Shown here: positions 30,387 through 58,491 of the stretch, piece after piece
How the letters are laid out: every line of letters starts with the position of its first letter
Position numbering within the stretch: position 1 is the first letter of the stretch
Source of the DNA: a virus
Taxonomy: Duplodnaviria > Caudoviricetes
Virus record (IMG/VR): IMGVR_UViG_3300028886_000002
Coordinates: 32,001 to 96,000 of that record
Length of the DNA stretch: 64,000 nt
Reading direction: 5' to 3' (one strand)
Made by a program: the position numbers and the translations under genes
Notes under the pieces: model-generated
What the model saw: the letters and a program-made list of their open reading frames with translations, nothing else
The model's database searches: none
Told to the model about the DNA's origin: nothing

Positions 30387-32432
30387 TTAATGAACCCAAT
30401 GGTCGGATACTTCAGCTTCTGCAGGTATAGGTAAAGATTTACAGTATTTGGCTGCGGATTCTTCCATTTTCTGTTGTACTATATTAGGAAATTCTTTTAC
30501 TTCTTTCGGAAATTCCCAGCATGTTTCATCATGGACTAGAGCACAACATAGGATTTTGCCAAAATACTTATTTTCAACAATCCAATTAAAAATATCAGTA
30601 ACAGCTTCCTTGGTCATTGCCGCCGATGTGCCTTGTGGAGGGGCATTTCGAGCAAGTCGATCCCATTTACTGGCAGCTCTAAAATGACTAGAAACCATTA
30701 AAGCTACTTCATCTCCAGTACCCTTATGGAATTGTCTATATTCTTCCCAAAATTCTGGAGTAAAAGATTGCTGCCTAGCTAACCACACATCATGGTCCCA
30801 CCAATACATCTTATGACCAGTCAATGGACATATTAAAATATAACCATTCTTCCTTACAAAGGCAGCTCCTCTTTTTGCAAATTCTACTGTACCTTTAAAG
30901 CCTTCCTCATAATTTTTTACTATAGTTAAAGCTTCCTCTTCGCTACATTTAAGTTGCTGCATTATAGTAGTATATCCACCACCGTATGCTAGTGCAAACT
31001 CGGGCCCCTTGGCTAGAGTTCTTAAATCTGGTCTTAATCTTTTAACATCATGTACATCAATATCTTTTAGTTCATCCTTAAAAAATATCTTAGCATACAT
31101 ACTATGACCATCAATCCCTTCTCTGTACATTTTTAGAATAGCCTTATCTTGATATATGTCACCTTGAACACGCCCTTCTTGAGCTGCGTAGTCACAGCTA
31201 ACAAATAAATTACCTTCTTTCGCAGTAAAACAAGCTCTAGTTGTAGCATCATGTGGTAGCTGCTGAAGATTTGGGTAAGTACAATCTTTAGGACTTAAAT
31301 TTTTATACTTGGCTAAATCATAATTAGACTGCTTACTTCCACAAGACATTCTACCAGATCTGGCTCCAAGTTGTTTATAATTAGTATGTATTCTATCGGT
31401 TTTTGGGTTAATAGCATTAAGATGGCCTTGACCAAAAGATGTAATTACTTTAAATGCTTCCTGAAAATCAAAATATAATTTCAGGAATTCATCATTTATT
31501 CCTTTTTGACTATTAAGATGCTTTTCAAGTACACTATCCTTATCTTCTCCAGTCTTTTTATCCTTTACTTCAGTATTAAATCCTAAATCTTTGGCTATTT
31601 TAACCACTTGTTGACTACTAGCCCAGTTAACTGTGCATATAGGAGTAGTATCAAATCCATCAAATAGACTACCTTGTAGATTTACTCTAGTATATTTAGA
31701 TAAAGCAGGATTATTGACAACAAAATCATCAAGAGCCTTTTTATTAGCTTCATACTTGATTCTATCATTCTTCATCTTTTCTTTCCATTTATCTGCATCC
31801 AAATGTATTCCACACCATTCGAGATAAGCTATAGCTGGAATAAAGTTACATTCTACTTGAACTGCTTTCTTAAGACCTTGTTTCTTTACATCCTTTAATT
31901 GTGAATTAGCTATATCGCCTAAATATGTAACATCTCCTGCTGCATATTTAATAACTTCTTCATCCAGTCCTCTCCATATAATCTCACCTCTAACTGTTTT
32001 ATCAATATCAATATTAAGCCTTCTAGCTGCTATTGAACGTAAAGAATAAGATATTACACTGCTAGGATATCCTAAATGTAATAGTTGCTCTACAATCATA
32101 GTATCATACACATTTCTAGGTATAATTCCATAGTTATATAAGAACTGTAAATCAAATTTTATATTTTGACCTACTAGTTTATTGTTTTCTAAAATATCCT
32201 TATATAGCAAAGGCGAAATCGTAGTAGTATCAACAACTATTTGATTTTCTCCTTTAATGTCTCCAAATTGCATACAAAGCAATTTACAGAGATGTGGATC
32301 ACGACCTTCGGTTTCAGAATCATACTGAATGATACTCCAGGACTCCATCATTTTAATGGAGTCCTCTGGAGTTATCATCGTGTACACGTCTGAGTTGAAT
32401 AATTCTTTTTGTGTACTTACAAAATATATCAT
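30387..32432 (-). CDS. polA: Family A DNA polymerase with 3'-5' exonuclease
   Basis: Exo motifs YDSET, NIKFD, YAAGD; polymerase motifs DYAAQEGR, RTLAKGPEFALAYG, VHDE. Confidence 0.95.
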   Translation of the reverse strand: MIYFVSTQKELFNSDVYTMITPEDSIKMMESWSIIQYDSETEGRDPHLCKLLCMQFGDIKGENQIVVDTTTISPLLYKDILENNKLVGQNIKFDLQFLYNYGIIPRNVYDTMIVEQLLHLGYPSSVISYSLRSIAARRLNIDIDKTVRGEIIWRGLDEEVIKYAAGDVTYLGDIANSQLKDVKKQGLKKAVQVECNFIPAIAYLEWCGIHLDADKWKEKMKNDRIKYEANKKALDDFVVNNPALSKYTRVNLQGSLFDGFDTTPICTVNWASSQQVVKIAKDLGFNTEVKDKKTGEDKDSVLEKHLNSQKGINDEFLKLYFDFQEAFKVITSFGQGHLNAINPKTDRIHTNYKQLGARSGRMSCGSKQSNYDLAKYKNLSPKDCTYPNLQQLPHDATTRACFTAKEGNLFVSCDYAAQEGRVQGDIYQDKAILKMYREGIDGHSMYAKIFFKDELKDIDVHDVKRLRPDLRTLAKGPEFALAYGGGYTTIMQQLKCSEEEALTIVKNYEEGFKGTVEFAKRGAAFVRKNGYILICPLTGHKMYWWDHDVWLARQQSFTPEFWEEYRQFHKGTGDEVALMVSSHFRAASKWDRLARNAPPQGTSAAMTKEAVTDIFNWIVENKYFGKILCCALVHDETCWEFPKEVKEFPNIVQQKMEESAAKYCKSLPIPAEAEVSDHWVH

Positions 32433-32728
32433 AATTGATATTGCTTCACATATTCGTATAAAGAATCTAAGTCATAGCAAATTCTATTACCTTCTGCATC
32501 AGTTGCTATATGGTCTTTACCCTCAAATAAGTACCACATTATCCAATCAATTCCATATTCATTAAAGTGACTAGCTATTAAAGTTTCAAATATTACAAAA
32601 CTCTCCTTATATAAAGGGGATTCTCCTATTTCTATATGATGATCATCCCATAATTTATGTCCTTCGTCCAATAATACTTCTACACTTTTAACAGCTTTGA
32701 TAAATAATTCTTTAGTTATCATATTCAA
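32429..32728 (-). CDS. Hypothetical protein
   Basis: 99-aa coupled ORF (DWIMWYLFE). Confidence 0.7.
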   Translation of the reverse strand: MNMITKELFIKAVKSVEVLLDEGHKLWDDHHIEIGESPLYKESFVIFETLIASHFNEYGIDWIMWYLFEGKDHIATDAEGNRICYDLDSLYEYVKQYQL

Positions 32729-32942
32729 TAATTTCTACATTAAAATTGTCGGATTCTACTTTTGTAAGTATATAATCACTTATAACTTCTTCTACTCCTT
32801 TTATGATTTCCTCTGTTGTAGGACTATCTTCTACAGAGAGAAGCATATCCATAAACAAAGGATCTTTCTTTAAGTTAGCAATATCAACTAAAAATTCACC
32901 AGTAATTTTTGCAACAGTTTTCATATTAATACCAAGTTTCAA
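32712..32942 (-). CDS. Hypothetical protein
   Basis: 76-aa coupled ORF. Confidence 0.6.
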   Translation of the reverse strand: MKLGINMKTVAKITGEFLVDIANLKKDPLFMDMLLSVEDSPTTEEIIKGVEEVISDYILTKVESDNFNVEIIEYDN

Positions 32943-34203: not shown

Positions 34204-34468
34204 AATTTACTATATTATTAATATTACATTCATTTACTTCGGAATAAAATCCTTTTATTCCTTTTTTATTTTCGTAAACAGCTACAAATGGAATCAATCT
34301 TGCTCCAAATGAGCTTTTTATTTGACGAGCTTTTCTTTTATCACTAAATATATTCTCATCATAAAATTCAAAACTAATAGGAAACCCTTCCAGCTCTTTA
34401 GTTAAGCTAGAAGGGTTTAACTCATTAGTTAGTAAACTATTATAAACCAATTTTATTGTCATAAGCAT
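34118..34468 (-). CDS. Hypothetical protein, possibly thioredoxin-like fold
   Basis: FGARLIPFVAVY resembles a cis-Pro loop; follows the RNR gene. Confidence 0.55.
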   Translation of the reverse strand: MLMTIKLVYNSLLTNELNPSSLTKELEGFPISFEFYDENIFSDKRKARQIKSSFGARLIPFVAVYENKKGIKGFYSEVNECNINNIVNYVKDKTSCDIFDSPSPNDIEDNGDKTDV

Positions 34469-36414
34469 TTACTATAATCGCAGTCTAAGCACCTTATACA
34501 TCCACCTTCTCGAATTAATCTGCCACCACATTTAGGACAAATTTCAGCACTTTCTTCTTTAGGCATATACTTACTTAATATTCTACATATAGCAGAACTA
34601 AATGACGTTATATTCTCATTAACTTTCTTTTCAGTTTTGATAATAAACTTTAATGGAATTCCATGCCGCAACAATGCACTTACTAACAACGTACAAGTTC
34701 TCTGTTCTGCATTAAGAAGACTGTCTAAGTCATCTATGTTGATAAGATCTGAGTGGAAGCTATATAATCCTTTAGCTCTTTTTGTTAATATACCTTTATG
34801 ATTATTTATTTTTATCTGTTTTTCTGGCTTAAAGCAGAAAGCTTCATAAGGTTTATTCTTATATAAACCAATCATAACATAAAAGATTTCTCCACCTACT
34901 TTTACAGAATAGAATTCTGCATCTAATTTCCTAGGGCGTTTAGGAGCACTAATAGAAGATTCAAATCTTTCTTCTTTTTGTTTATCACTAACAGAGTTAA
35001 GAATTCCTTCCCTACATCCATCACGATATACTGTAACTCCCTTTAAACCATTTTCCCAAGCTTCCATATAGATTTTAGATATCTCTTCTTCTGTAGTTTC
35101 TTTAGGTAGATTTATAGTAGATGATATGCTATGGGTTATAAAAGTTTGACATGTGGCCTGAGTCATAATTCTATAATGCCAATCAATGTCATGCGCTGTC
35201 GCTCCATGATATGGACTCTCTTTATAAATAGTATCCCATTTATCGAGACTCCAATTATCAATATTTTCTTCTGGGTATTTTATTCTTGCCCATTGTTTTA
35301 AACCCTCGTGTACAACTACGTATTCTGTAAATTTAACACCTAGTTTATCTACATAATCTACACGATCAGTATCAGAAGTACATTTCTTTCTTCTCTTATA
35401 ATATGGCATAAATACAGGTTCAATACCTGAAGATGTTTGAGTAAGCATTGCTACACTACCAGTAGGAGCAATGGTACTAAAAGATATATTACGTCTTCCG
35501 ACTTTTAACATTCTTCTGTACGTTTCAAAGTCGTATTCTTTTACAAGACTTTGAAATAATGGATTCTCTTTATCAAAACCATCATATTCTTCAAATATAC
35601 CTCTAGTTTCCGCCATATCAACAGTTGCCTTAAGCTCTGCTTTGAAGATAGTTTCCATTACAGTCTTTATAATAGGAATAGATTCTGGAGAACCATATTT
35701 AATATTAAGTTGTGCTAACATATCAGCTAGACCTAGTATTCCAACACCTGCTCTTCTTCCTCTCTTCGAAACATCAAGAATTTTTTCCCACATTTCTTGT
35801 TCTTCAGATTCAGACTCACATACATCAATAATCCTTTTTACTGCTTCTTGCTCTAAATCTACCAAGTCATCTCCCAATTTCATTGCATAATAGCCTAAGT
35901 GAGCTATAACATTGTAGTCTAATTCCGCTTTTTCAGTATATGGATATTTAACACATTTAGCAAGATTAATATGAATTAATCTACAGGAATCCATAGCTCC
36001 CATACCAATCTCTCCACAAGGATTTGTAGAAATCATACTAAATTCTGGATAATAACGATCTGGTGCTTTTAAATGCATTGCATCATCAAATATTATACCA
36101 GGCTCGGCTGTATTCCAAGCACAATGAATTAATTTATTCCATAAATCACGTGCTTTAATTCGCTTGACATATTTATGATAGCCAACTTCAATAAGTTCAC
36201 CTAATTTACTATTAGTTGGGATATATACAGTATCAAAGTCCAAGTCTAAAGGATATCTTTGGTAATATATCTCATCATTCTTAACGGCTCTCATAAAAGC
36301 ATCAGACACTTTTACAGAAATATTAGCACCAGTAACTTTTGTTAAGTCTTGCTTCTTTTCTATAAATTCTTCAGCATCAGGATGATCAATAGATATAGTT
36401 AACATTAATGCGCC
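34459..36414 (-). CDS. nrdJ: Class II (B12-dependent) ribonucleotide reductase, exon 2
   Basis: Begins GALMLTISIDHPD; TNPCGE, TIAPTGS, SISSTINLP, GLKGVTVYRDG and a C-terminal Cys cluster. Confidence 0.92.
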   Translation of the reverse strand, partial: GALMLTISIDHPDAEEFIEKKQDLTKVTGANISVKVSDAFMRAVKNDEIYYQRYPLDLDFDTVYIPTNSKLGELIEVGYHKYVKRIKARDLWNKLIHCAWNTAEPGIIFDDAMHLKAPDRYYPEFSMISTNPCGEIGMGAMDSCRLIHINLAKCVKYPYTEKAELDYNVIAHLGYYAMKLGDDLVDLEQEAVKRIIDVCESESEEQEMWEKILDVSKRGRRAGVGILGLADMLAQLNIKYGSPESIPIIKTVMETIFKAELKATVDMAETRGIFEEYDGFDKENPLFQSLVKEYDFETYRRMLKVGRRNISFSTIAPTGSVAMLTQTSSGIEPVFMPYYKRRKKCTSDTDRVDYVDKLGVKFTEYVVVHEGLKQWARIKYPEENIDNWSLDKWDTIYKESPYHGATAHDIDWHYRIMTQATCQTFITHSISSTINLPKETTEEEISKIYMEAWENGLKGVTVYRDGCREGILNSVSDKQKEERFESSISAPKRPRKLDAEFYSVKVGGEIFYVMIGLYKNKPYEAFCFKPEKQIKINNHKGILTKRAKGLYSFHSDLINIDDLDSLLNAEQRTCTLLVSALLRHGIPLKFIIKTEKKVNENITSFSSAICRILSKYMPKEESAEICPKCGGRLIREGGCIRCLDCDYSKCL

Positions 36415-37403
36415 CTATTTGGACTATTTCATACCTTTTTACAGGCTTGGGCACTCTAGCTGGTTATTAAGGGAACCCATTTTCCCTCCAGTAGTCTCTA
36501 CACCTTCTACTTCATGGGAAGTAGCTTGGCACGAGATTGCACTATTAATAGTGTTTTCCTCGTTTTCACCCAATTCAAGACGCAGCGCATTATATTTATT
36601 ATATTTACGGGGTAATACAATTAAATCTTCTTTCCCGTACATATATTTCAAGATATTTAAAACATCTTTTTTAGATGCCATTTCTAATACATAACAATTT
36701 TCTGTTCCTTTTTTATGTAAGGCGGAACTTATACCTAAAGATATTAAAAGCTTTTGTATAGCATATAACAATTTATAACTTCCAGTGAAATTTACTTTTT
36801 GCCATATTCTATTACGATCTTTTCTTCTACCCCATGTTAAACATCCATCTCCATCAAAAAAGCCTAGTAACATATAAGGCTCTAAATCTTTTCTTATTAT
36901 CGGAAAAGTTTTATTTTCTTTAGTACCATTAGATAGCCTATTAATGTCCTTTACTAAAGTCGAATTTCCAATATTTACACTAGCATTAGGAAATCTTCTT
37001 TTACTCCTATCTAGCTTAGTAGATATTATAACTCTAGTATTTAGTTCTTTAGCAATAAAATCTAAAATACATTTATCAGCTAAAGCGCATCTATATTGTA
37101 TGACTTTATTGTTTATATAACCATCTGCTAAAGTATAGCCTAATATATAAGCTTTTTCTTTTGTGTCTATTTTGTTAAAATAATCATAATTATATTCTGG
37201 TCTTTTATGCTTATAAAATTCTTTCAAGCCCATTTTATTTATATGATGCAAAATAGTTCTATGTTTTATGTTAACATTTGGTAACTTTTCTATTTCTTTT
37301 GTATTCATACCTTTAATAAGGCATTCTTTTAAAAATTGTTTTTCTATCATAATAATCTCTACTCTCTATATTTTCGAAATTAATTTTTAAATATCTTTTA
37401 TTT
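36415..37403 (-). mobile_element. Group I self-splicing intron (989 nt) in nrdJ
   Basis: 5' exon ends in U (aagacgU) and the intron ends in G. IGS gcgucuu (36583-36577) pairs with the exon end; P10 aaugcgc pairs with exon-2 gcgcauu; P7 gacua/uaguc. Splicing restores NGRR|GALM in frame. Confidence 0.92.
36439..37350 (-). CDS. Intron-encoded LAGLIDADG homing endonuclease
   Basis: Two motifs, AYILGYTLADG and MLLGFFDGDG. Confidence 0.92.
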   Translation of the reverse strand: MIEKQFLKECLIKGMNTKEIEKLPNVNIKHRTILHHINKMGLKEFYKHKRPEYNYDYFNKIDTKEKAYILGYTLADGYINNKVIQYRCALADKCILDFIAKELNTRVIISTKLDRSKRRFPNASVNIGNSTLVKDINRLSNGTKENKTFPIIRKDLEPYMLLGFFDGDGCLTWGRRKDRNRIWQKVNFTGSYKLLYAIQKLLISLGISSALHKKGTENCYVLEMASKKDVLNILKYMYGKEDLIVLPRKYNKYNALRLELGENEENTINSAISCQATSHEVEGVETTGGKMGSLNNQLECPSL

Positions 37404-51849: not shown

Positions 51850-51880
51850 AAAAAATCTCCGTTAAAATTAACGGAGATTG
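51850..51880 (-). terminator. Rho-independent terminator closing the recoded island
   Basis: aatctccgttaa-aa-ttaacggagatt stem with U-tract on the - strand, just after the 51884 stop. Confidence 0.75.
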
Positions 51881-51883
51881 TAA

Positions 51884-53215
51884 TTATACAAATAACATTC
51901 TAAATATTTGACCACCATTTTTAAATAGTATATCTTCGTTACTATATACTTTGTCCCTTATTCCTTTTAAACTAGCTCTACCATTTTCTGCTCTATTCCA
52001 AAAATCATTATTTAGTTTAAAACGTCTTCTAGTCATGTCTCTAAATATCCTATATCTTTGTTCGGGTGTTAATAAATCCCTACCATCACTGTCTCTACTA
52101 TTATTAATAATATCATTATAAATCTCAATTAACTTTCTACCATTACCAAGACCAGCATCACGATTTAATCTATCCATTACATGCTAAGCATCAACTACAT
52201 AATCATTCCTAAAATAATCATTTTGAGCAAATTCATTTGCAAGTGTTCCCCAAACGTTATCGCCTGCATACTTTTTAAAGAAATTTGCTCCATTATATTT
52301 TTTATCTATACTATTTCTAGCTTCATTTAAATAGTCTCTATCTGCCTATCCATCACGACCAGTCCAACCTTTGGTAGCGGCATATGCTTCATATTTATCC
52401 ATATTATCAAGAGAAGCATAACCTCTACGTAATTGCTCATAAAAGGGTTTACCTTCATCAGAAGCAGCATATTTTCCTAATAAAGCAGCGGCACGCTTAA
52501 CAGCATCGGCATTTCCTATGAATCGGTTGTTAACAAATAAGGGATTTTCTCCAGAGTTACTATTAATGTAGTTTATAGCACCTTGTGCACCCTATAATTG
52601 AGCAAGAATATTTAACTCTTCTTCTGTATCAATGTCACCATAAATATTACCTAAACTTCGTATATTGTTGAAATTTTTTGCTCCCCAAGGATTGGTATCG
52701 CTCATCCACTCACTATAAGTATAAGCACCATAATTAGGAGTGATTACAGGAGCAGTTTTATCATTCAAATGAAGATAGCCACCTGTTGGAGCTGGTGTAC
52801 TAGGTGTACTAGGAGTGGTAGGAGTAGAAGCAGCTCCTAGACCAGGATTACGTCTGTAAAATGTATTAAGCAGAGATAATTGTATTCTTCTCTTCTGACC
52901 ATCATCACCCGTATATTCATATACACCCCATTGACCTTTCTTACCAGGTATTACGTTATTTGGATCTATACGAACATGTACCTTATAGTTATCATCATAT
53001 GCGTACATATCATCATACAAATCATCGTTTTTATATCTATTTATCATTTCATTCCATCGCTACCCTTTTGCGCCTTTAAAGGCAGTACGAAGCCAAGGAT
53101 TATAATATGATTTATTATCTCCATATGCTATAGGAGTCTACAGAGTAATAGGTATAAAATCGCTTGTTGATAATCCCGTGAAAATGTTATTATTATCATT
53201 ATTAACTGTTGCCAT
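51884..53215 (-). CDS. TAG-recoded hypothetical protein, 443 aa, probably virion-associated
   Basis: ATG 53215, five in-frame TAGs, TAA 51886-51884; joins two track fragments. P/S/T linker and C-terminal KNGG. Confidence 0.8.
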
Positions 53216-53230
53216 AATTAATTAATTGTT

Positions 53231-54004
53231 TTATTTCGTTTGTGTATTATAACTTCTATTTATTCTATTTAATGAGTTTAAGTAAGTGGAAACTAAACTA
53301 GATATTGCAGTATCATTTAATTTAGTTTCATTAACTATAGTATTTGCTATTTGATTTGGATCTAATTCTGTAGTTTTATCTTTACTGTCTTCTTTTTGTG
53401 TTCCTAGTATATCATCAAGAAAATCAAAACTTCTAGTAGTAGAGTCAGTACTTATGGCAGAACTTGTGTCTGTAGTAGTATTAGTATCTGAAGTAGAATT
53501 AGTGACATCAGTTGAATTAGTTATTGATTTAGTTGTTGGAGAAGATGAGGCAGAATCAGTATTATCTACCCACTTACCTTTTTTAAGGATATTGTAATTA
53601 CCTTTAGAATCATATCCTGTAGAACCTTCTGATAATATATACCAATTTTTATTATGATCACCAGTTATATACCTACCTAACCATTTATTATATGCTGATT
53701 TATATTCTACTTCTCCTTTAGCATAGTTTTTAGGAGATTTAATAGTATCAACTTTATATACTTTATCACTTCCAAAAAGACCTCCGTCAGAATAATGTAT
53801 TAAATCTCCTTTTTTATACTGAACTCCTTCTATAGATATATCTTCAGGAATCTATCCAATATAACCATCCGTATCATTAAATTTAATTAATTCAATAACC
53901 TCTTCAGGTCCTGTACCAGGTTTATGGTCTGCACTATATAAAAGTAATCGTTTTTTGTCTGTACCTACATCACCTCTGAAAGAATAGGTCTATGGTTTAC
54001 TCAT
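53231..54004 (-). CDS. TAG-recoded hypothetical protein, 257 aa, with S/T-rich linker (absent from the ORF track)
   Basis: ATG AGT AAA CCA TAG...; two TAGs (codons 5 and 51); TAA 53233-53231. Confidence 0.78.
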
Positions 54005-54032
54005 AATTATTATTTATCATTTATATTTTATT

Positions 54033-54064
54033 TTAGTATCTCGGCTGAGAATCAAACTCAGATT
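54033..54064 (-). pseudogene. Isolated 3' half of a tRNA (T-arm plus acceptor 3' strand)
   Basis: CTGAG-TTTGATT-CTCAG followed by CCGAGAT A CTA; no adjacent 5' half. Confidence 0.4.
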
Positions 54065-54068
54065 ATTG

Positions 54069-54148
54069 TACAGGGAGGGGGATTTGAACCCCCATACTGG
54101 CGTCAATTTAGTAAACTGATGCAAGCATCCCTTATGCGTTACCCCTGC
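54069..54148 (-). ncRNA. Atypical tRNA-like RNA with extended anticodon stem (loop UUACUAA, nominal anticodon ACU)
   Basis: Acceptor GCAGGGG/TCCCTGT; D-like GCAT/ATGC; T-arm GGGGG-TTCAAAT-CCCCC; 8-position anticodon stem with one A-C mismatch. Confidence 0.7.
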
Positions 54149-54212
54149 TCGAAGGCCTCCACGGGTGCGCTGTTCTTATGAGAAGCGTAGGAGGTCATAT
54201 TTTAAAACTTAT

Positions 54213-55238
54213 TTAAAGCGTAAAGTTAGGACCTTTACTTGCTTTATAATATTTATTATCTTTAGATAAACCTTCTTCAATGATTTGTTCAAGAATAATG
54301 TTTCTATCATCAATAGGCATTCCCTTAAATAGAGATACATTCATGATGTCACACAGACTCATATCAGTCTTCTCTAGCAGAGTGATTCTTTGCATAGTTC
54401 GATATGAACATAAACATTCAATGCCACACTTTTCTGTGGTTTCTCTAAATTTATGTACAAAGTTAATCAATTCTGTGTTATTTTCACAAATATTTTCCTC
54501 AATTTTTTGTGAATAGTCAATTTCTACCAATGCAAATCTATCCAAAGATGCTGCATCAATACAATATCTACCAGTATAGTTATTATCAGCACCTTTACCT
54601 ACAGTATTACCAGCGGCAATTACTCTAAAATTCTCGTGAGCTTCTACTCTACCTATAGGAAAATCAAAGTAACCATTAGCAATAGCAGCATTAAGAATAA
54701 CCAATACTTCAGGAACAGAAGCATCCATCTCATCTAAGAAGAATACACCGCCTTTAGTAAATGCATCATAGAACTGAGTCTTCTGATAATTACCATGAGC
54801 ATCAATAAATCCAGTTAAACGATACTCTTGAGTTACAGCATTAGTAAAATAGAATTCAAAACCAAGAGCATCAGCAACTTGCTTACAAATAATATTCTTA
54901 CCAGTTCCACTCTTACCAGTCATAAATACAGGAATACCAAGATTAACCATGTTCAAAATCTCATCAAATTTCTCATGAGTTACTCCTTCTATTTTTCTAG
55001 TTTCAGTAGGAGTTTTAATTTCATGGATCTGAGGTAATACCCCATAAATTTCAATAATTTTCCTGGTTAATTCGGGCTTAATAGTCTCTACAATAGCATC
55101 AATACCATCACCAACAACAGTATCAATGATAGTCTTTTGAATAGCCTCTACTACTTTATTAGCAGAAGTAGTGTTTTTACCTTTTGGAGTTTTAATTCCA
55201 GCTGAAATCTCTTGTTTAATTTCATCTACAGTTTTCAT
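54213..55238 (-). CDS. MoxR/CobS-like AAA+ ATPase
   Basis: GKSGTGKN, FFLDEMD, AAGNT, DAASLDRF. Confidence 0.88.
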   Translation of the reverse strand: MKTVDEIKQEISAGIKTPKGKNTTSANKVVEAIQKTIIDTVVGDGIDAIVETIKPELTRKIIEIYGVLPQIHEIKTPTETRKIEGVTHEKFDEILNMVNLGIPVFMTGKSGTGKNIICKQVADALGFEFYFTNAVTQEYRLTGFIDAHGNYQKTQFYDAFTKGGVFFLDEMDASVPEVLVILNAAIANGYFDFPIGRVEAHENFRVIAAGNTVGKGADNNYTGRYCIDAASLDRFALVEIDYSQKIEENICENNTELINFVHKFRETTEKCGIECLCSYRTMQRITLLEKTDMSLCDIMNVSLFKGMPIDDRNIILEQIIEEGLSKDNKYYKASKGPNFTL

Positions 55239-56077
55239 CTATCTACAATCTTTTTACAATTTAAATATTTTAATAATTCTTCAATATCATAATTATGCTC
55301 TCTAATCCAATAGTTACTTACTACAAAGTTATCGTCTTTTTTGAGATATTTAACTATATTATCTGAGTTTGTAATACTTCTTCCATAGCTAATTCTCCAA
55401 TCTCCTTTTTTTATAAATGGATTTGTTTCAATCCATTTGAATCCTATTCTTCTTAGCATAGAAGGATGAGTTATAGGGAAACAAATCTTTAAAAGATCAA
55501 GTCTTTGGCCATAATTTTTAAGGTTAACTGTTGGAAAAGCTGCTTCACAACACTCTTCTGCTGCTACAAAAGCTAGATCAAGTTTTACTTGAATACCGTT
55601 AGATTCTATAATATTTACAGCAGTTAACATTGCTACTCCTGCATCAATAAAAAAATTAGAGCTTTCACAAGAATTACCACTATTAGTATAGATTATATGC
55701 ATAGTTTTTTGCTTTTGTGGTATTTTATGCACATTAATCATACTATTAGGAATATTTTGTATAGCATTTGGTACATGTGGAATATAGCCAACAATATCTG
55801 AATGAGGAGCGTTTTTACTTACTACTTGAAATTTATTATATTTTTTAGAAGTCACCCTCATCTGTTGTTTAATTTTATAGAGATGTTCTTTATAACCAAA
55901 AGTTATTAACTTTTTAGCATCATCATAATCACAAGTACAATACCATGTACCACCTTTACTTTCTATATCTTCACTACTTAAACGACTCTCCTCTTTAAAT
56001 ACTATATTAGGTTTTCTACAGTCTAAAGTCTTAAGCAAATTACTTACACTTGGAAATTCTTCAGTATATACATTCAT
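55235..56077 (-). CDS. Probable VWA-like partner of the MoxR ATPase
   Basis: Coupled to the ATPase; VGYIPHVPNAIQNIPNSM and HPSMLRRIGF motifs typical of phage MoxR partners. Confidence 0.6.
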   Translation of the reverse strand: MNVYTEEFPSVSNLLKTLDCRKPNIVFKEESRLSSEDIESKGGTWYCTCDYDDAKKLITFGYKEHLYKIKQQMRVTSKKYNKFQVVSKNAPHSDIVGYIPHVPNAIQNIPNSMINVHKIPQKQKTMHIIYTNSGNSCESSNFFIDAGVAMLTAVNIIESNGIQVKLDLAFVAAEECCEAAFPTVNLKNYGQRLDLLKICFPITHPSMLRRIGFKWIETNPFIKKGDWRISYGRSITNSDNIVKYLKKDDNFVVSNYWIREHNYDIEELLKYLNCKKIVDR

Positions 56078-56085
56078 TTTTTATT

Positions 56086-56337
56086 TTATTTCATAAATCT
56101 TGATATTATATAAATTACAATACAAATAACAAATATTTGCCAAAATTTTAAAGTAATCCAACCAAAGCTTACAGCTAGAGCATTATATAATACTAATAGT
56201 ATTCCAGCAGCAGCAGCATTAATAGCTATTACTAAAAGAAATAGTCCTAATAATACTATTAAACATTTCAAGCAAGAATATTTTTCTTCATTCATAATAT
56301 CTTTATTTATAATAAGTTTAATCTCTATATCTGGCAT
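56086..56337 (-). CDS. Small membrane protein
   Basis: Two hydrophobic segments. Confidence 0.65.
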   Translation of the reverse strand: MPDIEIKLIINKDIMNEEKYSCLKCLIVLLGLFLLVIAINAAAAGILLVLYNALAVSFGWITLKFWQIFVICIVIYIISRFMK

Positions 56338-56608
56338 CTCCGTGATTAATAATACCTAAACCAGACACATCATTATTAATTTCTTTAGCTTTAGGTAGCT
56401 CTTCATATTCAATAGTACACAAAGATTTAGCTACCTTATATAGACTCTCTAGCTCTTTTAATTTTTCTTCTTCTTTAAAGATGGTTTGTCTTAAATTCCA
56501 AATACTATCTTGCAGAGCTTTAATAGAAGTATTCAGTTGGATAACATACTCCTCAAAATTTTCCCCAGTTATCATGGGATACAAAGATTTAACTTTCTTT
56601 ATTTTCAT
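56318..56608 (-). CDS. Hypothetical coiled-coil protein
   Basis: 96-aa coupled ORF. Confidence 0.6.
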   Translation of the reverse strand: MKIKKVKSLYPMITGENFEEYVIQLNTSIKALQDSIWNLRQTIFKEEEKLKELESLYKVAKSLCTIEYEELPKAKEINNDVSGLGIINHGDARYRD

Positions 56609-56838
56609 TATATTATTGCTTTATAGCCGCATCTACTACATTTATACTTATAGACATAATAATACCTATTTCGCATTCCTGTAGCATGTGGGCGTAAAAT
56701 TTTACCACATTTAGGACATCTTATAGATGCTCGTTTATTTCTTTGATATTTAGTCCAATAGACAAGTAGCCCTAGCAGGGACCATCCTACTAGGGCTATA
56801 ATTAAATTTTCAGTCATTTTTATAGTTTTATACTCCAA
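56608..56838 (-). CDS. Membrane-anchored zinc-ribbon protein
   Basis: TM helix, then CPKCG...CSRCG. Confidence 0.65.
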   Translation of the reverse strand: MEYKTIKMTENLIIALVGWSLLGLLVYWTKYQRNKRASIRCPKCGKILRPHATGMRNRYYYVYKYKCSRCGYKAII

Positions 56839-57757
56839 AAGCTACCTTATATGCCTTGTCTAGAGTTTCTCTAGATAATGTACTTCCTGTTTCCTATTTA
56901 GCTGTAAGAGCCACAAATGAACATAAAGTCCACTTATCATCAGTATTAAGTTTGTCAGCTGGAGAAATTCCTAACTATTTACATTTCTGAGTAACTCCAT
57001 AAAGTCGCATAGCGGTAAGACCAATAGGTTCATTTCTATTATAATAACCTCGCATACCATTATCCATTTGAGCTACATTCTTTTTACCATATTTTCTTCT
57101 GTATAAACGCATAGCACTAGCTATACCATCTATTACATTATCAAATACAGCTGCTCCTTGCCCATCTCCCATTGTAGCTTTTCCACTTACTCCAAGAGAA
57201 TCCTTAGAAGCTGATATATTACAAGGATTATTATTTCTACCACCAGCAGTATTTTTATTTATATAAGTTTTAGCATTGTTAGAAACTAAATCAAAAGTCT
57301 TATAATTAGTACTGTTATCCTTTAATAATTGTTCATACTAATCATAATCTATTATTGGGCGAGTAGTAATTTTTCTTAAATCATAGGTTTTAATTCCCTT
57401 GTATGGAGTAGTATTAGCATAAGGGTATTTACCCTCAGCTAATTTTTTCCCAGTAATACTAGAACCTCCTGGCGGAAGCTTAGAAATCATATTAGAAGTA
57501 TTATTACTAAAGTCTTGAGTTTCTACTTGATCCTACATACTGGTGTCAGTAGAAAACATATCAGAAAGGTCTATAGATTTATTTTTAAGACTATTAAATA
57601 AATCTGAAATATCAGTGTACTAAAAATTCCCTTGTGTAGAAGTACCAATAGAACTATCATATTCTTGTAAATCAGTCTCATCATCTAAATCAAGACCCCA
57701 AGAACTAGGAGGATTCCAGAACATACCGTACTGTGCTTTTCTTATAAGTTTACTCAT
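56828..57757 (-). CDS. TAG-recoded lysozyme-like (RNNNPGNI-family) virion protein, 309 aa
   Basis: ATG 57757 (MSKLIRKAQYG), five TAGs, TAA 56830-56828. RNNNPCNI at about 57238-57215, then AVFDNVIDGIASA...Y and C-terminal AK(Q)ETG. Confidence 0.75.
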
Positions 57758-57778
57758 AATTTGATTAATTAAAAATAG

Positions 57779-57842
57779 AACCTCTTGAAGGATTCGAACC
57801 TCCATTTCTATATCTAGTGTACTGCCTTTATACTAAAGAGGC
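57779..57842 (-). ncRNA. tRNA-like RNA lacking the anticodon loop (64 nt)
   Basis: Acceptor GCCTCTT/AAGAGGT; D-arm GTAT-AAAGGCA-GTAC; CTAGA joined directly to TATAG; T-arm GGAGG-TTCGAAT-CCTTC. Confidence 0.75.
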
Positions 57843-58077: not shown

Positions 58078-58491
58078 TTAGCATACAAAATGCTTTATCT
58101 TATATATGGCACGTTTAAATAATCTAATTATATATTTGTACAAATATACAAGTGCAAATTTAAGTCTATTTTTCTTATAAACCAAATATTGAACCTTAGA
58201 ATTTCCACCTGGGAGAACATTATATCCATTAGGAATCATAGTATCAAATGCTTTAATATATTGTTTCTCTAAAGCATTTAGTGCTTTATGAACGTCCCTA
58301 GATGGGCCAGATATTCGTTCAAGTACGGTATATTCAAAATTAAATATACCGTACTGACGAATAGCTTTATCAATACGCTGTTTATTATTAGTCAAATGTT
58401 CTTTAAATCTTTGCTTTTCTCGGACTGTTTGACCTATATATATTTTACCATTAATTTTATTAGTAAAACAATATATAATACCTTCGATCAT
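58078..58491 (-). CDS. GIY-YIG endonuclease (free-standing, homing-type)
   Basis: GIIYCFTN...IYIGQT...RFKEH...E...GYN. Confidence 0.88.
   Translation of the reverse strand: MIEGIIYCFTNKINGKIYIGQTVREKQRFKEHLTNNKQRIDKAIRQYGIFNFEYTVLERISGPSRDVHKALNALEKQYIKAFDTMIPNGYNVLPGGNSKVQYLVYKKNRLKFALVYLYKYIIRLFKRAIYKIKHFVC

Follow-up and report, generated by a model that had tools for sequence, protein, structure and literature searches.

A conserved tRNA-like RNA without an anticodon loop lies ahead of an amber-recoded putative lysin gene in a crAss-like gut phage

The 64,000-nucleotide (nt) stretch of virus DNA analyzed here, bases 32001 to 96000 of IMG/VR record IMGVR_UViG_3300028886_000002 (hereafter the window), belongs to a complete record of 160,728 base pairs (bp) with direct terminal repeats, and carries on its − strand three genes with several in-frame TAG codons each, lying behind two RNAs of tRNA-like shape. 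We found that these RNAs differ in kind. The one ahead of the putative cell-wall hydrolase gene P0003, called TLS2, is a conserved and apparently selected RNA unable to decode, whereas the one ahead of the gene pair P0002-P0001, called RNA 1, is a degraded copy of a tRNA(UCU) gene and not a mimic. We think it somewhat probable overall that the recoded islands are suppressor-gated late genes located at tRNA loci, which act as cassette boundaries and nuclease hot spots, with RNA 1 as wreckage of that traffic and TLS2 as a selected non-decoding RNA that is probably processed. The original prediction, made from the letters of the window, had taken both RNAs for tRNA mimics acting as 5' leaders. 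The features that carry the argument are as follows, with lengths in amino acids (aa) for proteins.

57779-57842, − strand: TLS2, 64-nt tRNA-like RNA (RF00005, 45.4 bits, E = 1.9e-6)
56828-57757, − strand: P0003, 309 aa, 5 TAG, recoded putative cell-wall hydrolase behind TLS2
54069-54148, − strand: RNA 1, a degraded gene of the long-variable-arm tRNA(UCU) family (RF00005, 33.9 bits, E = 0.0026)
54037-54067, − strand: orphan 3' half of a tRNA-Arg(UCU), with variable loop, T arm, acceptor 3' strand, and A73
53231-54004, − strand: P0002, 257 aa, 2 TAG, Ser/Thr-rich linker and conserved C-terminal part
51884-53215, − strand: P0001, 443 aa, 5 TAG, conserved C-terminal motif GGQIFRMLFV
51854-51879, − strand: intrinsic-terminator-like hairpin of 11 pairs followed by a T-run, closing the P0002-P0001 pair

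Results

TLS2 has the fold of a tRNA with a stub for its anticodon arm

When the whole window was searched with the Rfam tRNA model RF00005 (gathering score, 29 bits), both RNAs scored above threshold, in agreement with the earlier description of them as tRNA-like, with good acceptor and T arms and a G1-U72 pair. In TLS2, a 7-bp acceptor stem with G1-U72 is followed by U8 and A9, a D arm with a 4-bp stem (GUAU/GUAC), A14, G18G19, and A21, and then A26. A stub of 3 bp and a tetraloop, CUA-GAUA-UAG, stands where a 17-nt anticodon arm is expected; its 10 nt (CUAGAUAUAG) are exactly 7 fewer than in a normal arm. The 3' part consists of a 4-nt variable loop, a T arm with the loop UUCGAAU, and U73, and CCA is not encoded. 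The minimum-free-energy fold is identical to the cloverleaf with stub given by the Rfam covariance model. TLS2 does not have the 5-bp stem and 7-nt anticodon loop of a decoding tRNA, and it has a U at position −1; its shape is that of tRNA-like processing signals, a non-decoding fold with intact acceptor-T stack and elbow at an mRNA boundary. Judged by its fold, TLS2 is the only true non-decoding tRNA mimic of the two RNAs, so that the predicted mimicry survives for TLS2, which has no anticodon loop, and not for RNA 1, a decaying tRNA(UCU). The suppressor anticodon CUA at positions 34 to 36 of a 7-nt loop occurs in neither.

An alternative fold of TLS2, as a suppressor tRNA(CUA) without a D arm, was rejected. 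It needs an A-A mismatch and A33, it is neither the minimum-free-energy nor the covariance-model structure, the variant U13C and a loop insertion in relative L017 suit the cloverleaf with stub better, and the genome holds a normal suppressor. Membership in SpF41 (RF02435), a Streptococcus small RNA family, was likewise rejected, with 31.8 bits in the window and 32.3 to 34.8 bits in relatives against a gathering score of 52; nor is there a terminator between TLS2 and the ATG of P0003, so that TLS2 does not have a terminator of its own in the manner of SpF41. As to its origin, TLS2 matches the phage tRNA-Thr(UGU) exactly in U73 and the 5' strand of the acceptor, and the first 12 nt of the D arm are the same as in the phage suppressor tRNA(CUA). 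It differs from these canonical tRNAs in that it has G1-U72 where G1-C72 would stand and, without an anticodon loop, is unable to decode. These common segments likely tie the origin of TLS2 to these two tRNAs.

TLS2 is conserved at a fixed distance from the recoded hydrolase gene

Protein look-ups yielded as relatives two IMG/VR contigs (L001 and L002) and eleven assembly contigs (L015-L024 and L063-L065), with DNA identity to the window of about 82 to 94%. No close relative of the region or of TLS2 was found among deposited phage genomes, and in IMG/VR there were the two only. The gene order common to the relatives starts with a GIY-YIG gene, a small open reading frame (ORF), TLS2, and the recoded hydrolase gene, sometimes with a recoded paralogue; it goes on with a small membrane/zinc-ribbon protein, a 96-aa ORF, a DUF7192 gene, and an AAA_5 ATPase gene, and ends with tRNA(UCU) and the homologues of P0002 and P0001.

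TLS2 is present in every fetched relative whose locus spans its position, and all of these copies together make up five sequence variants only. The changes in stems are U13C (G-U to G-C) and G41A (G-U to A-U), and those in loops are 2 nt inserted into the stub loop and a single substitution in each of the D loop and T loop; U8, A14, G18G19, A21, the T-loop contact nucleotides, and the whole acceptor stem are invariant. Column identity is 97.5% in TLS2 versus about 85% across the surrounding 2.9 kb, making it the most conserved 64-nt stretch of these 2.9 kb (top 0.4% of 64-nt windows). In the window, TLS2 ends 21 nt, and not 22 nt as originally counted, before the P0003 start codon at 57757, and the distance to the start of the recoded hydrolase is 20 to 22 nt in all relatives, including the one whose catalytic domain is swapped (L063). 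The TLS2 sequence stays the same beside a lysin of just 70% identity and beside one with a different catalytic domain. A search around the GIY-YIG gene found neither partial copies of TLS2 nor duplicated target sites.

TAG is read as a sense codon in the three genes

By its genome layout, the phage is an amber-recoded crAss-like gut phage, and the window stretch is its standard-code (early/middle) arm. Giant genes on the + strand are rich in in-frame TAG (54 in one 3310-aa gene), and a − strand block from about 55 kb to 123 kb in genome coordinates is nearly TAG-free. In-frame TAG in late-type genes combined with standard-code replication genes is the known layout of amber-recoded crAss-like phages (PMC7886860; bioRxiv 10.1101/2021.08.26.457843). 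Seven further tRNAs were found by ARAGORN and Rfam, all outside the window: a normal suppressor tRNA(CUA) at genome positions 126017-126091 and six ordinary tRNAs at 109.9 to 115.3 kb. The statement that the two RNAs are the only tRNA-like elements therefore applies to the window and not to the genome.

The frames of the recoded genes were read with TAG as Gln. That P0001, P0002, and P0003 are the only multi-TAG genes on the − strand of the window was confirmed. The remaining − strand ORFs with at least two TAGs were rejected as start extensions or overlapping wrong frames; for example, 34459-36432 is a 648-aa standard-code ORF with a start extension, and 32429-32779 is of the same kind. In homologues of the recoded genes, TAG and CAA/CAG alternate in conserved alignment columns (237, 267, 273, and 298 in P0003), the residue most often opposite TAG is Gln (51 cases), and two TAGs are retained in every homologue compared (9/9 or 13/13). 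This alternation shows that TAG is read as Gln and that the TAGs of the three − strand genes are real sense codons. The GC content of the recoded genes, overall and at third codon positions, equals that of their neighbors, with no sign of compositional foreignness.

P0003 is putatively a cell-wall hydrolase with a lysozyme-type fold like that of the Enc34 endolysin. Its N-terminal half is disordered and begins with a conserved MSKLIRKAQYGMFW, and its C-terminal domain is modeled at a predicted local distance difference test score (pLDDT) of about 85 to 95. Foldseek gave a single significant match, the catalytic domain of the Enc34 endolysin (7q47; E = 2.9e-4, probability 1.0), at 20% identity and a template modeling score by target of 0.58. 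PHROG matches to endolysins and to a tape-measure lytic domain were weak, Pfam gave no match, and a search of PDB sequences with a P0003 profile gave chance-level matches only. The L063 homologue keeps the N-terminal MTKLIQKAKYGM segment and 5 TAGs, and a Phage_lysozyme2 domain (a precomputed match) replaces the Enc34-type domain. Some relatives have in tandem a heavily recoded lysin paralogue (L002:6972-7901, L015:7445-8320, L017:7463-8395, and L019:752-1624) with up to 10 TAGs, four of them within the first 23 codons; the window genome is single-copy.

P0001 and P0002 are Ser/Thr-rich proteins that matched no Pfam or PHROG family. P0001 homologues in all relatives are likewise TAG-bearing, and a look-up for relatives with P0001 as query gave no result. 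The hairpin and T-run at 51854-51879 bear out the earlier view of these two genes as a tandem pair with its own terminator.

RNA 1 marks a decaying arginine tRNA locus

RNA 1 is the only element that ARAGORN reported in the window, under the name tRNA-Ser(ACT). It has a G1-U72 pair, good acceptor and T arms, and a 7-nt anticodon loop, UUACUAA, with anticodon ACU. It is thus not a tRNA-Arg(UCU) by its anticodon, which reads ACT in the window copy; the label Ser(ACT) arises because T34 changed to A, and this change (U34A, TCT to ACT) was found in the window copy alone among the relatives compared. The anticodon is TCT in L001, L015, L016, and L018, which have a long form of the gene, and in L002 and L017, which have an ordinary one. 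AGA is the main Arg codon of the phage genome.

The ordinary form in L002 and L017 is a 72-nt tRNA-Arg(UCU) scoring 67.9 bits at the place of RNA 1, and with it the proposal that RNA 1 is a mimic falls. At the same place L015, L016, and L018 have an 89-nt tRNA(UCU) with a 5-bp variable arm, directly followed by the last 31 nt of the ordinary tRNA-Arg gene, and the window and L001 share this long form, its variable arm shortened by an 8-nt deletion. The half tRNA noted earlier beside RNA 1 is real and corresponds to this leftover (54037-54067, T arm and 3' acceptor strand); its T loop is mutated in the window (TTTGATT) and in L001, and it lies 32 nt from the P0002 ATG at 54004. In L015, the long tRNA is immediately preceded by an HNH endonuclease ORF (phrog_10822, E = 8e-19), which itself has three TAGs. 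The full set of replacement-cassette features, HNH ORF, long-arm tRNA, and leftover 3' half, is thus seen in L015, and the last two only are seen in the window. These arrangements suggest that RNA 1 is a nuclease-linked replacement allele over the 5' part of a resident tRNA-Arg, now eroding in the window genome.

In the 89-nt tRNAs (L015:11300-11388, L016:9906-9994, and L018:10096-10184), the D stem has 3 bp and the anticodon stem 6 bp, and their scores with the tRNA-Sec model are 37 to 38 bits (gathering score, 47). It is unusual in bacteria for an Arg codon to be read by a tRNA with a long arm, since bacterial tRNA-Arg is normally short-armed. With its long variable arm, an identity of this tRNA(UCU) other than Arg (Ser or Leu) therefore comes into question.

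Recoded genes concentrate at tRNA loci, but not one-to-one

Both RNAs precede recoded genes as noted earlier, RNA 1 the P0002-P0001 pair and TLS2 P0003, and this adjacency of recoded islands to tRNA or tRNA-like loci is kept in all relatives fetched. Across the genome, about three of the six genes directly behind a − strand tRNA or tRNA-like gene are recoded, versus about 5 of about 105 genes; a rough hypergeometric estimate, made after the data had been seen, puts this enrichment at about 1e-3. For example, a 345-aa − strand ORF with about 10 TAGs (genome 112774-113811; L059:3775-4812) starts 43 nt after tRNA-Leu(UAA). Pfam and PHROG gave no family for this ORF. Inspected by eye, its product shows a segment resembling peptidoglycan-binding domains and a C terminus like that of NlpC/P60 proteins, and the 198-aa product of the gene next to it has weak NlpC/P60 and CHAP matches.

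The expectation that recoded islands consistently follow tRNA-like leaders is borne out by the relatives and by the tRNA-Leu case, but not by a − strand NlpC/P60 gene with six TAGs (genome 128595-129413; Pfam, 42.9 bits), whose 160-nt upstream spacer has no tRNA-like match at E values up to 1. This gene is part of a second cell-wall cluster (genome 127784-129413; L058:5785-7414, − strand), in which it stands beside a TAG-free Phage_lysozyme2 gene (74 bits). Conversely, tRNA-Lys, tRNA-Gly, and tRNA-Glu each head a TAG-free gene. The TAG-bearing genes of the standard-code arm thus concentrate at tRNA loci without a one-to-one relation.

Two of the TAG-bearing genes at tRNA loci are selfish endonucleases. 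At one of these loci (genome 115644-116191; L059:6645-7192, − strand), a selfish nuclease gene that is itself recoded interrupts a tRNA gene. A tRNA-like 5' half, with acceptor strand CTGGGAT and a canonical D arm, is matched by a perfectly complementary 3' acceptor strand, ATCCCAG, and the 3' part has no normal T loop; between them lies a 140-aa PD-(D/E)XK endonuclease ORF (PF11645, 103 bits) with three in-frame TAGs. Endonuclease genes at tRNA loci thus comprise the HNH gene of L015, the GIY-YIG gene at 58078-58491, and the PD-(D/E)XK gene inside the split tRNA. A 566-aa TAG-free protein with DUF2828 and DUF7788 (genome 116621-118321; L059:7622-9322, − strand) adjoins the tRNA cluster.

Stub-armed tRNA-like RNAs occur in other phages

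Pattern scans for D-arm and T-loop motifs with too little room between them for a full anticodon arm returned twenty Streptococcus-type prophage or satellite contigs of IMG/VR with the SpF41 RNA of Rfam (L025-L044), about 10 other metagenome examples, and three in Bacteroidota genomes. In ~38-kb prophages with a readable downstream ORF (13 loci), the SpF41-like RNA immediately precedes the first ORF of the late region. Two prophage loci were scanned, and both have the RNA between a phrog_9479 gene and terS/terL. Among the ORFs that follow it, at least three unrelated kinds of N terminus occur, which we take as different terS types. Other stub-armed RNAs (L046/L048, L051/L057, and L053) lie inside tRNA arrays and are missed by ARAGORN. 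RNAalifold, run on the TLS2 variants and four stub-armed RNAs, returned the cloverleaf with stub and compensatory changes in 13 of 19 pairs; covariation, which had been proposed as a check, is in this sense present across families, in sequences chosen with a search pattern in which portions of the D arm and T loop were preset. A literature search for anticodon-less tRNA-like RNAs in phages gave nothing relevant in the collection of papers covered, and it turned up no paper describing a stub-armed class.

SpF41 also occurs in the Streptococcus phages phiNJ2, A25, and Str01, in the Javan series, and in Streptococcus satellite phages, where it lies near one end. It has a tRNA-like core, a 4-bp stub, and its own terminator, with a TATAAT box just upstream in satellite copies, and deposited Streptococcus phage records do not annotate it as an RNA. 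The array of L051 and L057, from an unrelated metagenomic phage, contains besides its stub-armed gene a tRNA with a four-base anticodon (cttt by ARAGORN; L051:282-354 and L057:2305-2377).

Discussion

In the mechanism that we favor, the three TAG genes would be conserved late-type genes, one for a lysozyme-fold hydrolase and two for Ser/Thr-rich proteins, and their translation would wait for the ordinary suppressor tRNA(CUA). Recoded phage lysis genes have been described (bioRxiv 10.1101/2021.08.26.457843). The tRNA loci of the lineage would be boundaries that gather homing-endonuclease cassettes and accessory genes. At one of them, a long-arm tRNA(UCU), linked to an HNH gene in L015, would have overwritten the 5' half of an ordinary tRNA-Arg(UCU), and the window copy would then have lost part of its variable arm while its anticodon changed to ACU. 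As to TLS2, recognition of a tRNA by RNase P, RNase Z, and the CCA-adding enzyme depends on the acceptor-T stack and the elbow and does not involve the anticodon. Precisely these parts are retained in TLS2, along with a U at −1, and excision like that of a tRNA is therefore expected; we infer that TLS2 is cut out of the transcript in this way. Such excision would also cut the message 21 nt before the lysin start and leave a 21-nt A/U-rich leader. The selected function could be the cut, the released small RNA, or neither.

Several points weigh against this composite. The relatives form a single genus-level group at the identities given above, and their agreement, including the conserved adjacency, is therefore weak independent evidence. 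Windows 58250-57990 around the GIY-YIG gene also reach 0.90 to 0.96 identity, and the conservation of TLS2 may in part be that of a co-conversion tract around this gene. The 137-aa GIY-YIG protein has no DNA-binding domain and may be inactive, and the window itself has no endonuclease gene beside RNA 1. Finally, the homing-endonuclease genes at these loci make a hot-spot explanation available, but a hot spot leaves the fixed places of P0003, P0002, and P0001 in all relatives unexplained.

In the leader reading, the tRNA or tRNA-like RNAs would be dedicated 5' leaders, whose cleavage by RNase P and RNase Z releases, stabilizes, or times recoded late mRNAs from a long early transcript, as a phage counterpart of the plant mitochondrial t-elements (PMC1920247), which offer a precedent. 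We regard such a general leader system as rather unlikely, although parts of it stand, since the adjacency is conserved and enriched. The distance of TLS2 to the lysin holds even with a swapped catalytic domain, no terminator separates TLS2 from the gene, and the upstream ORF is only 32 nt away; tRNA-Arg and tRNA-Leu also precede recoded genes by 32 to 43 nt; a pure cleavage signal would look like a non-decoding tRNA shape; and the SpF41-like RNAs of Streptococcus phages lie between the last early gene and terS, ahead of three terS types. However, relatives have an ordinary tRNA-Arg in place of RNA 1, which decays in the window, the recoded NlpC/P60 gene has no tRNA upstream, tRNAs also precede TAG-free genes, and stub-armed RNAs occur in pure tRNA arrays, where there is no mRNA to release. 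Moreover, a standard suppressor tRNA exists and already supplies the timing, which therefore needs no leader. Alternatively, TLS2 could act in trans, its place before the lysin gene being incidental. Once excised and given a CCA end, it would serve as a decoy or ligand for proteins that recognize the acceptor end or elbow, which could be nucleases or transferases of host tRNA-targeting defenses or a tRNA-binding enzyme of the phage or the host. Phage tRNAs are known counter-measures to tRNA-targeting defenses (PMC10264068, PMC11464382, PMC11555353), and a defense by cleavage of tRNA tails has been described (PMC12851939). The invariant tertiary-contact nucleotides and acceptor stem, the acceptor 5' strand and U73 shared with tRNA-Thr(UGU), and the stub-armed genes that are ordinary members of tRNA arrays in unrelated phages (L046/L048, L051/L057, L053) all agree with such a role. 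Against it, no candidate partner protein was identified, the array examples are possibly pseudogenes, and the strict 20- to 22-nt coupling to the lysin is left unexplained. The known decoy tRNAs, to our knowledge, all retain anticodon loops, and we hold a role in trans to be improbable.

It is hardly credible that both RNAs are functionless scars of homing-endonuclease traffic, with TLS2 hitchhiking in a recently homogenized tract. Each locus does have endonuclease genes at it or close by, decay is plain to see in RNA 1 and the half tRNA, and the flanks of TLS2 are well conserved too. Yet TLS2 is a sharp conservation maximum, set off from the GIY-YIG tract by a dip to 0.80 to 0.83; its few changes keep pairs or lie in loops; it remains unchanged beside a 70%-identical lysin or another catalytic domain; and the surroundings of the GIY-YIG gene hold neither partial copies nor target-site duplications.

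Much of this locus belongs to already known kinds: recoded lysis genes, suppressor tRNAs, nuclease traffic in tRNA genes, and tRNA-like processing signals. As in the recoded late and lysis modules (TAG to Gln) of crAss-like and Lak gut phages (bioRxiv 10.1101/2021.08.26.457843; PMC7886860), TAG lies in late-type genes including a cell-wall hydrolase, replication genes keep the standard code, the phage has a suppressor tRNA(CUA), and modules are scattered over the genome; the difference is that single recoded genes lie here in a same-strand early block, at tRNA loci. In Jade phages, a "code change module" with a real suppressor tRNA precedes the lysis cassette (bioRxiv 10.1101/2021.08.26.457843; PMC7886860), whereas here a non-decoding tRNA-like RNA stands in that place. 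The t-elements and mascRNA-type signals share with TLS2 a non-decoding fold at an mRNA boundary that keeps RNase P and RNase Z features, but they are organellar or nuclear and their cleavage was shown by experiment, where that of TLS2 is expected from its shape.

Free-standing homing endonucleases of the T4 SegB type reportedly reside in phage tRNA gene clusters. Here too an endonuclease gene abuts a tRNA (the HNH gene of L015), and the leftover half of the target stands beside a divergent replacement allele; unlike that type, the nuclease is HNH and not GIY-YIG, the replacement is an unusual long-variable-arm tRNA(UCU), and the genome of the window lacks the endonuclease gene. SpF41 resembles TLS2 in a near-identical D-arm sequence (UAGUAUAWAGG..UAC), a short GAUR-tetraloop hairpin for the anticodon arm, the GGUUCGAAUCC T loop, and its occurrence in phages and satellites, before late genes (terS) in the phages but not in the satellites. 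It differs in an extended interrupted stem, where TLS2 has a plain 7-bp acceptor stem, in its TATAAT box and own terminator, both missing from TLS2, and in host phylum, Streptococcus versus a Bacteroidota-type phage.

What appears new is a conserved stub-anticodon tRNA-like RNA coupled to a recoded lysin, with apparent relatives in other phages. More speculatively, TLS2, SpF41, and the array genes may form an undescribed phage-wide class, kept as non-decoding substrates of the host tRNA-processing machinery, which would head lysis or packaging genes in this crAss-like lineage and in Streptococcus phages and set the timing or strength of late messages; we put this forward as a doubtful possibility.

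Recoded phages are common in the gut, and their timing of lysis is still being worked out. Here, amber codons occur in lysis-type genes that lie at tRNA loci in the midst of early genes, and the locus separates two look-alikes, the wreckage of selfish nucleases in tRNA genes and a conserved non-decoding look-alike of a tRNA. If TLS2 and its kin serve as cleavage signals or as decoys, phages would be using host tRNA enzymes in a new way, and these RNAs would make up a gene class that tRNA-finding programs and annotation pipelines now overlook. The tRNA(UCU) of the relatives, with its long variable arm, is unusual in its own right.

Neighboring features

The remaining features around the two islands are as follows.

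54149-54212, − strand: 64-nt spacer separating RNA 1 from the ATPase gene, with a weak hairpin
54213-55238, − strand: TAG-free AAA_5 (MoxR-like) ATPase gene, between the two islands
55235-56077, − strand: TAG-free DUF7192 gene, between the islands
56608-56817, − strand: TAG-free gene for a 69-aa protein, directly after P0003
57875-58051, − strand: TAG-free 58-aa ORF, ending 32 nt before TLS2
58078-58491, − strand: GIY-YIG protein of 137 aa, homing-endonuclease families, catalytic domain only

The spacer at 54149-54212 is common to the window, L001, and L016 and differs in L002, L015, L017, and L018, and its folding is no better than that of shuffled sequences (z = −0.47). A promoter scan returned 47 sites versus 46.8 expected, with no Bacteroidota −7 motif seen by eye. 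The 69-aa protein has a hydrophobic N-terminal helix by eye and weak, sub-threshold zinc-ribbon matches, and it may be a lysis partner of P0003.

The GIY-YIG gene (phrog_314, E = 1e-21) is in place in all relatives. It contains a palindrome with 16-nt arms (AGTACGGTATATTCAA / TTAAATATACCGTACT) at 58322-58355, one arm of which recurs at 13 of 14 nt at 57719-57733, in lysin codons 8 to 12 (AQYGM); this recurrence could be chance or a nuclease recognition site.

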